Made by a program: the position numbers and the translations under genes. Below, one piece after another: positions 40,212 to 41,610 of a DNA stretch of 64,000 nucleotides (positions are counted from its first letter, which is position 1; each line of letters starts with the position of its first letter). A model generated the notes under the pieces. That model was not told the DNA's origin. It saw only the letters and a program-made list of their open reading frames with translations, and did no database searches. Source of the DNA: Escherichia phage tootiki; sequence record MN850647.1; one strand, written 5' to 3'.

Positions 40212-40290
40212 TGGTACTCCATATCGGATTCGAACCGATACATAACACAGATTTTAAGTCTGGCCTCTCTGCCAATTGGAGTAATGGAGC
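40212..40290 (-). tRNA. tRNA-Leu-like (anticodon TAA), short variable region
   Basis: Leu-type D-loop AATTGGCAGAG, anticodon loop CTTAAAA, A73, but only about 7 nt between anticodon and T stems. Confidence 0.5.
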
Positions 40291-40292
40291 AT

Positions 40293-40368
40293 TGGCGGGG
40301 GATGTTGGAATTGAACCAACTTCTTCGATTTCAAAGACCGAGGTTTTAACCTTGTAAACTAATCCCCT
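40293..40368 (-). tRNA. tRNA-Gln (anticodon TTG)
   Basis: D stem GTTT/AAAC, anticodon stem TCGGT/ATCGA, loop CTTTGAA, T-arm GTTGG-TTCAATT-CCAAC. Confidence 0.6.
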
Positions 40369-40376
40369 TTAAATCT

Positions 40377-40934
40377 TTACTTTCTCAGTGGATGAATAAA
40401 GAATGCCAACATAACTCTTTCCCTTGAGAATGCTCTTTCTTCTGGGACAACACTTTTTAGTTTCCATCCAATATAAATTCTCCAGTAAAACTGTTTACCA
40501 AAGACTTTAATTGATGGGATAAAAGCGAATAACCCCCAAGCATTACTGTTCCACATTAGGAGATAGCCAGTCTGATTATCTTCAGGGTCAGAACTTACGT
40601 TGATATTACCTTTCCACTTAGTAACATCTTTTACATCTCTTCCTAATACATGGTAAGAGAAGTTATAAGCTTTGTTTCTCCAGAGCCATCCAACTCTCTG
40701 CATGTAGACACCCAGTTTACCAATCTTTCTAATCTTAGCCCATCTTTTGACGTGGCCTTCGTCACCATCAATCGGGTTGTCATAGGTCTCCATCCATCTG
40801 AATCCAAAAGGCAGATGTCCCTTCTTCTCACTGTAGAATGGAACTACGAAAGGTGCTAAGATGACTGCTAGGGTTGCTGCAAATGGTTCTAGTAAAGCTA
40901 GGAAAATCCATGAAGCATACTTCAAATATCTCAT
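40377..40934 (-). CDS. integral membrane protein
   Basis: 185-aa ORF with hydrophobic N-terminus, embedded in the tRNA array. Confidence 0.55.
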   Translation of the reverse strand: MRYLKYASWIFLALLEPFAATLAVILAPFVVPFYSEKKGHLPFGFRWMETYDNPIDGDEGHVKRWAKIRKIGKLGVYMQRVGWLWRNKAYNFSYHVLGRDVKDVTKWKGNINVSSDPEDNQTGYLLMWNSNAWGLFAFIPSIKVFGKQFYWRIYIGWKLKSVVPEERAFSRERVMLAFFIHPLRK

Positions 40935-40953
40935 CTAAATAGCCTCTTAAAAT

Positions 40954-41031
40954 TGGTGTTCCAAGACGGATTCGAACCGTCACTAATACAAGGTTTGAGC
41001 TTGCATCCTCTGCCAATTGGGATACTGGAAC
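40954..41031 (-). tRNA. tRNA-Leu-like (anticodon CAA), short variable region
   Basis: Acceptor GTTCCAG/TTGGAAC, D-loop AATTGGCAGAG, anticodon stem GCAAG/CTTGT, loop CTCAAAC, A73. Confidence 0.5.
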
Positions 41032-41032
41032 A

Positions 41033-41107
41033 TGGTACTCACTAAAGGACTTGAACCTTTTTCTTCATCTTGTAAGGGTGGTGTTTTACCATATAAACTA
41101 AGCGAGT
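41033..41107 (-). tRNA. tRNA-Val (anticodon TAC), imperfect anticodon stem
   Basis: Acceptor ACTCGCT/AGTGAGT, T-arm AAAGG-TTCAAGT-CCTTT, loop CTTACAA; two mismatches in the anticodon stem. Confidence 0.5.
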
Positions 41108-41202
41108 GTGAAAGAGGTCTTAAGTTGTGCCGCTAACTCAACTCCGTGGAATTTGTTACGGTCTTCAGTTGACACCAGCGGTCTTTCACTTGACCTCTGA
41201 AT

Positions 41203-41279
41203 TGGTGCTGCTCACAGGACTCGAACCTGCATTTCCATCCTTACAAGGGATGTGTAATAGCCAATTATACGAAAGCAGC
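41203..41279 (-). tRNA. tRNA-Thr (anticodon TGT)
   Basis: Acceptor GCTGCTT/GAGCAGC, anticodon stem CATCC/GGATG, loop CTTGTAA. Confidence 0.7.
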
Positions 41280-41286
41280 ATTAATT

Positions 41287-41361
41287 TGGAGCATCCAGAG
41301 GGAATCGAACCCTCAACCTCAGTTTGGAAGACTGTAATTTTCCCGTTTAAACTATGGATGC
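41287..41361 (-). tRNA. tRNA-Gly (anticodon TCC)
   Basis: Acceptor GCATCCA/TGGATGC, anticodon loop CTTCCAA, T-arm GAGGG-TTCGATT-CCCTC. Confidence 0.7.
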
Positions 41362-41367
41362 ACTAAT

Positions 41368-41443
41368 TGGTGGAGAAGCAGGGAATTGAACCCTGTACTT
41401 AAGTTTGCAAAACTTATGTTTTAACCATGTAAACTACATCCCC
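41368..41443 (-). tRNA. tRNA-Ala (anticodon TGC)
   Basis: Anticodon stem TAAGT/ACTTA, loop TTTGCAA, T-arm CAGGG-TTCAATT-CCCTG. Confidence 0.6.
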
Positions 41444-41449
41444 AATATC

Positions 41450-41525
41450 TGGTACAGGTGGAGGGAATTGAACCCATCGTCTTACTGATTAAGAGTCAGC
41501 CGCATAACCATTTTGCTACACCTGC
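41450..41525 (-). tRNA. tRNA-Lys (anticodon CTT)
   Basis: Acceptor GCAGGTG/CACCTGT, anticodon stem GCTGA/TCAGT, loop CTCTTAA. Confidence 0.6.
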
Positions 41526-41532
41526 ATTAATT

Positions 41533-41610
41533 TGGTAGGAGACAAGGGATTCGAACCCTCAAACATCTCGTTCTAAGCGAGATAGGTTTACCAATTACCG
41601 TCAATCTCCC
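41533..41610 (-). tRNA. tRNA-Leu-like (anticodon TAG), short variable region
   Basis: Acceptor GGGAGAT/GTCTCCT, D-loop TAATTGGTAAA, anticodon stem TCTCG/CGAGA, loop CTTAGAA, 5-nt variable region. Confidence 0.5.

Follow-up and report, generated by a model that had tools for sequence, protein, structure and literature searches.

Three tRNA-Leu genes with short variable regions in the tRNA array of Escherichia phage tootiki and their relatives in other phages and in Actinomycetota

Escherichia phage tootiki, a Felixounavirus, carries three tRNA genes with the leucine anticodons UAA, CAA, and UAG in which the long variable arm is reduced to 5-7 unpaired nucleotides (nt). These genes lie in a stretch of 64,000 nt of sequence record MN850647.1, here referred to as the window. 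The genes, their cloverleaves, and the short variable region are real, and their products are probably functional type I tRNA-Leu isoacceptors. The three tRNAs would be transcribed with the rest of the phage tRNA array, trimmed to their encoded CCA end, and leucylated by the host's leucyl-tRNA synthetase (LeuRS), which would read A73 and the elbow of the D and T loops and not the anticodon; they would then decode UUA/UUG and CUA (CUN). The long variable arm is treated as a hallmark of bacterial tRNA-Leu in textbooks and in recent reviews.

ARAGORN calls all three genes on the minus strand with the same ends and lengths as the initial annotation, i.e., tRNA-Leu(UAA) at 40212-40290 (79 nt), tRNA-Leu(CAA) at 40954-41031 (78 nt), and tRNA-Leu(UAG) at 41533-41610 (78 nt), each including an encoded CCA. 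The Rfam tRNA model RF00005 (gathering score 29) matches them with 47.5, 44.0, and 44.5 bits, respectively, at E-values of 5e-8 to 5e-7. In a structural parse anchored on the anticodon and the T arm, the UAA tRNA displays the variable region GUUAUGU (7 nt), a 3-bp D stem, the 11-nt D loop CAAUUGGCAGA, a G1·U72 pair, and A73; the CAA tRNA displays AUUAGU (6 nt), a 3-bp D stem, the D loop CAAUUGGCAGA, G1-C72, and A73; and the UAG tRNA displays UGUUU (5 nt), the D loop AAUUGGUAA(A), G1·U72, and A73. The parse agrees with the 5-7 nt that had been placed between the anticodon and T stems and with the A73 that had been claimed for all three, to which it adds the encoded CCA, while the D-loop strings CAATTGGCAGAG and TAATTGGTAAA are both present as written. 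The D arm of the UAG tRNA contains one extra nucleotide, either a bulged pyrimidine or an 11:24 mismatch, which leaves its stem register ambiguous, and in the Rfam alignment this tRNA has a slightly different acceptor register.

Bacterial type II tRNA-Leu carries a long variable arm of more than 10 nt that forms a stem-loop, and in its place the three tRNAs have only 7, 6, and 5 unpaired nt. What they combine instead, a leucine anticodon, A73, a loop of about 5 nt, and a complete cloverleaf, is the definition of type I tRNA-Leu. Within the same array the variable regions of Ser(gct), Ser(tga), and Tyr(gta) comprise 21, 20, and 15 nt, respectively, bearing out the long arms ascribed to the Ser and Tyr tRNAs. 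The general statement that bacterial tRNA-Leu is long-armed holds for E. coli K-12, where leuV, leuZ, leuX, leuW, and leuU have 13-15 nt, but has known exceptions in Actinomycetota. A long arm overlooked through mis-folding by hand, which the initial annotation had allowed for, can be dismissed altogether, since neither ARAGORN nor Rfam nor RNAalifold leaves more than 5-7 nt from the anticodon stem to the T stem, and 78-79 nt including CCA offer no room for a hidden arm.

The short-arm cloverleaf was confirmed by alignment to the tRNA-Leu of related phages, which displayed compensatory stem changes. RNAalifold analysis of 44 diverse short-arm Leu tRNAs, including the three of the window, yielded a cloverleaf whose D stem has 3 bp and whose variable region of 5-7 nt is unpaired, with changes on both sides in 20 of the 20 pairs. 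The UAG alleles of the window and Felix O1 differ from those of Alf5 and KhF1 by a swap of the whole anticodon stem, in which three pairs are changed on both sides with pairing preserved. Kolesnikvirus phages of Erwinia and Cronobacter encode UAA, CAA, and AAG Leu tRNAs whose stems are entirely different, although the D arm is the same, A73 and CCA are present, and the variable region has 5 nt. The three tRNAs are highly conserved across about 260-310 phage genomes: of 263 phage records matching the UAA gene, 215 reach an identity of at least 99%, as do 159 of 291 for the CAA gene, with the flanking 5.5 kb mostly 80-95% identical among those relatives. The genes could also be read as decaying pseudogenes, derived from type II tRNA-Leu genes by deletion and drifting since. 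Phage tRNA arrays are in flux, with the window lacking the Arg(ACG) and Arg(UCU) genes of its relatives, and the window does hold a degenerate-looking tRNA-like element; decay is nevertheless strongly disfavoured and hardly credible in view of near-identical genes over hundreds of genomes in surroundings that differ by 5-20%, the compensatory stem changes, and the persistence of the design both in phage families that are distant and in Actinomycetota, where the chromosomal genes are single-copy.

The short-arm Leu design (74-78 nt, 5-nt variable region, AAUUGG D loop, and A73) was found by blastn and ARAGORN in a T5-like phage (UAA, UAG), Aeromonas phage Akh-2 (CAA, UAA), Acinetobacter phage P1 (UAG), and Lactobacillus phage LpeD (UAG, UAA, CAA), and in each of these arrays the Ser and Tyr tRNAs are long-armed. 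Uniqueness to phage tootiki is rejected by its occurrence in T5-like, Aeromonas, Acinetobacter, Erwinia, and Lactobacillus phages and in many IMG/VR contigs. A pattern scan of IMG/VR returned at least 120 loci with a median of 11 tRNAs per locus; the matches listed include at least 164 well-parsed short-arm Leu tRNAs, and A73 and U48, both outside the search pattern, are present in 164 of 164. Overall, at least 170 distinct viral tRNAs with Leu anticodons share the architecture, with full covariation. In a neutral sample of 117 viral-contig loci, picked by a neutral tRNA D-arm pattern, the short arm occurs in 9 of 41 Leu tRNAs (approximately 22%) versus 1 of 30 Ser tRNAs.

The same pattern applied to GTDB contigs, with one genome per species, returned at least 120 bacterial loci, and among the matches listed are at least 115 Leu-anticodon tRNAs, 83 of them in loci without another tRNA. 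These are mostly GC-rich UAA or CAA genes with a D arm nearly identical to that of the window, including single-copy chromosomal UAA/CAA genes in Nocardia, Rhodococcus, Gordonia, Mycobacterium, Corynebacterium, Arthrobacter, Bifidobacterium, and Rothia (e.g., loci L258, L267, L273, and L280). Specificity to phages is thereby rejected as well, most of the GTDB matches listed being solitary chromosomal genes of Actinomycetota, and actinobacterial type I tRNA-Leu reaches well past the one published CAA case of Streptomyces. Some bacterial matches, such as those in Acidobacteriota (L261, L263), belong to arrays as dense as 19-31 tRNAs per 8 kb. A blastn search with the phage UAA tRNA gave no match in 5,426 E. 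coli genomes.

Leucine identity in E. coli is determined by A73, U8:A14, A15:U48, G18G19, A20a, and U54:A58 (Giegé and Eriani, PMC9976931; Fan, PMC6614811), and the anticodon and the long arm are not crucial for it (PMC9976931). Positions 8-26 read UA-CUC-CAAUUGGCAGA-GAG-G in the UAA tRNA and UA-UCC-CAAUUGGCAGA-GGA-U in the CAA tRNA, which is a D arm in the style of class II tRNA-Leu, with a 3-bp stem, an unpaired 13·22 (N13·A22), and an 11-nt loop containing AAUUGG; moreover, A14, A15, G18G19, and A20a stand in the same register as in E. coli (UG-GCG-GAAUUGGUAGA-CGC-G). The AAUUGG loop is present in the UAG tRNA too, but the extra D-arm nucleotide blurs its class II register. In all three tRNAs the variable region ends in U48, the partner of A15, the T loop is UUCGAAU (U54, U55, C56, A58), and the discriminator is the A73 required by E. 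coli LeuRS. The nucleotides of the tertiary core, with the pairs U8:A14, A15:U48, G18G19 with U55C56, and U54:A58 predicted from sequence, and A20a are in place throughout, and in the parse every E. coli LeuRS identity nucleotide outside the long arm is kept in all three. The unpaired residue 47n of the long variable region, a listed LeuRS element, is missing from all three, and a variable stem is absent. This combination of a Leu-type D arm, A73, and the A15:U48 partners with loss of the long arm favours the class-I-like leucine tRNA among the readings that had been proposed. E. coli leuZ and leuU likewise have the G1·U72 pair of the UAA and UAG tRNAs; the idea that this pair specifically marks short-arm tRNA-Leu was rejected, given that it is as common in long-arm viral tRNA-Leu and present in those two E. 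coli genes.

The closest counterparts are the type I tRNA-Leu(CAA) of Streptomyces coelicolor (PMC6614811) and the actinobacterial genes, which share with the window the leucine anticodon, A73, and the class II style D arm (3-bp stem, N13·A22), and have a variable region of 5 nt where those of the window have 5-7 nt. The actinobacterial D arm, UA-NCC-CAAUUGGCAGA-GGN, is almost identical to that of the UAA and CAA tRNAs, and positions 8-25 of the chromosomal type I tRNA-Leu(CAA) of Rhodococcus are exactly those of the CAA tRNA. Unlike these genes, those of the window are phage-encoded and AT-rich, have an encoded CCA, and include an additional UAG isoacceptor; moreover, the hosts concerned (E. 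coli, Salmonella, and Shigella) have no type I tRNA-Leu, unlike Actinomycetota. With the type II tRNA-Leu of E. coli, i.e., leuZ (UAA), leuX (CAA), and leuW (UAG), the phage tRNAs have in common the anticodons, A73, U8:A14, A15:U48, A20a, the 3-bp D stem, and an AAUUGG(Y)AGA D loop in which G18G19 occupy the same register; the E. coli tRNAs carry a stem-loop arm of 13-15 nt where the phage tRNAs have 5-7 unpaired nt, and the divergence between the two is beyond detection by blastn. The tRNA-Leu of T5-like phages (Tequintavirus FFH1, L007), Akh-2, P1, Erwinia phage phiEa104, and LpeD resemble those of the window in their length of 77-78 nt, 5-nt variable region, A73, AAUUGG D loop, and, with the exception of LpeD, an encoded CCA, and the Ser and Tyr tRNAs of their arrays are again long-armed. 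The T5-like group differs in its D-loop subtype (GAAUUGGCAUA) and in its stems, and no paper was found that comments on the absent arm in the tRNA-Leu of T5-like phages, Akh-2, P1, phiEa104, or LpeD. Human mitochondrial tRNA-Leu(UUR) is likewise of type I with A73 and is charged without a long arm, with A73 and A14 as identity elements (PMC9976931); unlike the phage tRNAs it is organellar, structurally floppy, and served by a dedicated mitochondrial LeuRS.

Isotype scoring points to leucine for two of the three tRNAs. The CAA gene of Shigella phage Sf14 is identical to that of the window and its UAA gene differs by one base (C32U); in Sf14, the isotype models of tRNAscan-SE 2.0 rank Leu top for Leu_CAA (49.1), Leu_TAA (60.2), and Leu_TAG (67.4) (PMC12482277). 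We also constructed per-isotype profile hidden Markov models from viral-contig tRNAs, with the anticodon masked and the variable region removed, and with this weak classifier, which was correct for 12 of 23 array tRNAs, type II Leu came first for the UAA tRNA (35.7 versus 26.8 bits) and for the CAA tRNA (22.2 versus 17.0 bits). A version with the variable arm left in was discarded as uninformative, the type II Leu model penalising the absent arm. For the UAG type, the T5-like phage FFH1 has a UAG tRNA whose D arm (UGAUGGAAUUGGCAUACAUA) is identical to that of the Akh-2 UAA tRNA (L008), and since the two codon boxes are linked only by leucine, the Leu identity of the UAG type is supported; the UAG tRNA of the window is 75.7% identical to the 77-nt T5-like tRNA-Leu(UAG).

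The host favours CTG, and its UUA, UUG, and CUA codons are read only by minor tRNAs, those of the single-copy genes leuZ, leuX, and leuW. The window has a GC content of 39%, and the leucine codons in approximately 46 kb of long open reading frames (ORFs) are TTA (28.8%), CTT (28.0%), CTA (12.5%), CTG (12.5%), TTG (12.0%), and CTC (6.3%), so that TTA, TTG, and CTA together account for more than half. Higher usage of TTA and CTA in phage than in host has been reported for Sf14 (PMC12482277). When the terminase and ORF49 of the window are aligned with those of phiEa104, TTA, TTG, and CTA mostly stand opposite CTG, CTT, TTR, or Met, Ile, or Val codons (n=36 codons), and they thus appear to behave as leucine codons. 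Two further checks of decoding gave no result: a comparison of the terminase with solved-structure homologues, for which there was no PDB match, and a structural alignment of the S49 protease, which had too few Leu positions.

Several observations weigh against a set of three functional leucine isoacceptors, and they concern the UAG tRNA, the codon comparison, and charging. The UAG tRNA, with its irregular D arm, has the least Leu-like body of the three; the Leu(TAG) score of Sf14 is not transferable to it, the UAG gene of Sf14 being a different allele; its Leu profile came only seventh in our classifier, a result that is weak in both directions; and an identical copy of the gene is labelled tRNA-OTHER in one GenBank record. 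The codon-interchange comparison comprises 36 codons only. Charging with another amino acid, by which the phage would recode UUA, UUG, and CUA, had been raised in the initial annotation, and it could draw on the atypical architecture, the tRNA-OTHER label of the UAG gene in some records, and the Arg, Gly, His, and Ala profiles that rank above Leu for this tRNA. It is nevertheless very improbable, as alanine and serine identity both fail: the 3:70 pairs are U-A, U-A, and G-C, leaving no G3:U70 for AlaRS, the discriminator is A73 and not G73, and the short variable region provides no long arm for SerRS. Furthermore, Leu ranks first when the UAA and CAA genes, including those of Sf14, are scored for isotype, TTA, TTG, and CTA in the window align with CTG and CTT Leu codons or with Met, Ile, and Val in orthologues, and the D arm shared by the UAG tRNA of FFH1 and the UAA tRNA of Akh-2 connects boxes that only leucine links. 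The remaining E. coli synthetases generally need anticodon bases that UAA, CAA, and UAG do not offer, which also counts against recoding.

The published properties of E. coli LeuRS bear on charging more directly. Since this enzyme "could not leucylate" the type I tRNA-Leu(CAA) of S. coelicolor in vitro (PMC6614811), charging of the phage tRNAs by the host LeuRS stays something that we infer from their sequence, and it constitutes the main uncertainty. E. coli LeuRS has been described as charging only type II tRNA-Leu, its leucine-specific domain reportedly favours tRNAs with a large variable loop and decides the outcome, and crystal structures show the arm touching the C-terminal domain of LeuRS (PMC6614811). 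The LeuRS of the phage hosts is of this E. coli type, whereas an enzyme adapted to type I substrates would have a leucine-specific domain of the ScoLeuRS kind. The S. coelicolor type I tRNA-Leu(CAA) is itself leucylated by a bacterial LeuRS (Fan 2019, NAR, PMC6614811), and E. coli tRNA-Leu variants without the arm are active when A73 and the tertiary D/T-loop contacts are intact, according to a review of the original studies (Asahara 1993/1998, Tocchini-Valentini 2000, and Larkin 2002, via PMC9976931); unlike the natural phage tRNAs, they are laboratory constructs on an E. coli scaffold. The published evidence on the arm is therefore divided between active arm-less E. coli constructs and an E. 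coli LeuRS that is inactive on the Streptomyces type I tRNA.

This division leaves a rather unlikely alternative, in which the phage tRNAs are made and are not or poorly leucylated by enterobacterial LeuRS, and serve as decoys or sponges for tRNA-targeting toxins or nucleases, or are charged via a phage factor. Besides the failure of E. coli LeuRS on a natural type I tRNA-Leu in vitro (PMC6614811), it is in line with the lack of a match to the phage UAA tRNA in E. coli genomes and with the ability of phage tRNAs to neutralise tRNA-cleaving defences (PMC13096335). Against it stand the full elongator features of the three tRNAs, i.e., a 7-nt anticodon loop with U33 and A37, the T loop UUCGAAU, the encoded CCA, and A73, as well as anticodons that match heavily used phage codons and the reported activity of arm-less E. 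coli variants (PMC9976931). The presence of A73 and U48 in all 164 listed relatives fits selection for recognition by LeuRS and not for a decoy shape alone. A phage factor finds no candidate among the large ORFs scanned, as Pfam analysis of the 10 largest ORFs of the window detected no synthetase domain, a result that applies to these ORFs and not to the whole phage genome.

Among the class II isotypes, SerRS requires the long arm and bacterial TyrRS uses it, whereas the arm is at most a modest contributor for LeuRS, so only tRNA-Leu would be able to lose it. Only Leu has lost the arm, and among the synthetases of class II tRNAs bacterial LeuRS alone is reported to dispense with it; relaxed constraint is the simplest reading. 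Arm loss may alternatively be adaptive, the tRNAs being charged by enterobacterial LeuRS and escaping toxins or nucleases that recognise or cut the class II arm. If so, the phage would translate its leucine codons on while the host tRNA-Leu is disabled, leucine would be the only class II isotype able to escape in this manner, given the dependence of SerRS and TyrRS on the arm, and the occurrence of a short arm in a fifth of the Leu tRNAs of viruses, as against hardly any of their Ser tRNAs, would be explained. The proposal rests on analogy: the divergent variable loop of T5 tRNA-Tyr resists retron-Eco7, and Septu cuts tRNA-Tyr in its variable loop (PMC13096335). T5 tRNA-Tyr is thus a phage tRNA of the class II family in which an altered variable region matters in escape from a host tRNA nuclease (PMC13096335), though it differs from the Leu tRNAs of the window in isotype and in that its arm is altered and not deleted. 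Class II tRNAs are apparently the preferred targets of the nucleotidyltransferase toxins AbiEii and MenT3. In vertebrates, type II tRNAs are cut by Schlafen nucleases. We know of no bacterial nuclease or toxin directed at the arm of tRNA-Leu, and for that reason counter-defence is considered a doubtful explanation.

The genes themselves had been annotated before, all three appearing as tRNA-Leu in the RefSeq record of Felix O1, and the architecture is known from Streptomyces and from mitochondria. Bacterial type I tRNA-Leu(CAA) is established and has been called rare (Fan et al. 2019, PMC6614811). A literature search, whose reach did not extend to old aminoacylation data for the tRNA-Leu of T5, brought up no account of phage tRNA-Leu with a short arm, and a 2020 review of non-canonical tRNAs does not mention it. 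The wider pattern therefore appears new, in that the design is frequent in phages, the host enzyme reportedly rejects type I tRNA-Leu, and the type is widespread in Actinomycetota. Phages of E. coli and Salmonella as well studied as those of the Felix O1 and T5 groups each have two or three conserved genes for type I tRNA-Leu. Should the host LeuRS charge these tRNAs, they represent a natural experiment in which the arm is dispensable for bacterial leucylation and decoding, contradicting the restriction of E. coli LeuRS to type II; otherwise, tRNAs as conserved as these must serve some other purpose. The genes bear on the rules of tRNA identity and on annotation, as some pipelines label them tRNA-OTHER, and possibly on how phages counter toxins directed at class II tRNAs.

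Over the 5.5 kb that surround the three genes, the identity is 98.7% with Escherichia phage bumzen and 93-96% with Felix O1 and numerous further Felixounavirus genomes. The tRNA array extends over 39017-44210 on the minus strand with 24 ARAGORN calls, is interrupted by small ORFs and an HNH endonuclease gene, lies between the gene of a DUF2828/DUF7788 protein and the terminase and structural genes, and shares its synteny with Felix O1, Alf5, KhF1, and Sf14. Each of the three Leu genes is separated from the neighbouring tRNA genes by 1-7 nt, a spacing that suggests that the tRNAs are cut from polycistronic precursors. The gene content of the array differs among close relatives (window versus Felix O1, KhF1, and Sf14; window 40369-40953 and 41957-42881): the window has neither the tRNA-Arg(ACG) that, in Felix O1, KhF1, and Sf14, lies next to Leu(CAA) nor the canonical tRNA-Arg(UCU) that KhF1 and Sf14 possess, and HNH endonuclease genes are inserted at different sites. 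The Leu(UAG) slot (window 41533-41610; L248 2501-2578, L251 3001-3078, and L372 16492-16568) holds at least three alleles among close relatives, all short-armed, namely that of the window and Felix O1, that of Alf5 and KhF1 with its swapped anticodon stem, and that of Sf14 with a different body and a CAACUGGAAGA D loop, which suggests cassette-like replacement inside the array.

The 471-aa protein with DUF2828 and DUF7788 domains is encoded at 44376-45791 on the minus strand, directly adjoining the array, and its homologue in Felix O1 is annotated as 'RNA-binding protein'. DUF2828 is presumably related to the Ro60/TROVE family, and a link of this protein to the handling of tRNA or non-coding RNA is conceivable. 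A tRNA-like element at 42555-42633 on the minus strand scores 33.4 bits with Rfam and has no ARAGORN call. It has a 7-bp acceptor stem and a normal T arm, carries CUUCUAA (UCU, Arg) as its anticodon loop, and ends in ACCA, with only about 8 nt in the place of the D arm and a 'variable' stretch of about 20 nt, which gives it a degenerate appearance. The element lies directly upstream of an HNH endonuclease ORF (42190 to about 42540, minus strand) and recurs with 85-88% identity in the unrelated 145-kb rV5-like, 121Q-like jumbo, and Klebsiella phages, where it is labelled, if annotated, as tRNA-OTHER, tRNA-Leu, or part of an HNH gene; the element may form one flank of a mobile cassette with a homing endonuclease.

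Two records named for phages of Gram-positive hosts, GU169904 ('Staphylococcus phage SA1') and OK283618 ('Listeria phage LPML1'), are 100% or 85% identical to tRNA-array DNA of the Felix O1 group and are probably mis-assigned or chimeric database entries. Finally, Lactobacillus phage LpeD (Herelleviridae, NC_048677) contains an unannotated tRNA array at 2460-5830, which includes its three type I Leu tRNAs as well as a 92-nt call with the anticodon UAU and a further ARAGORN call whose anticodon has four bases (tttg).

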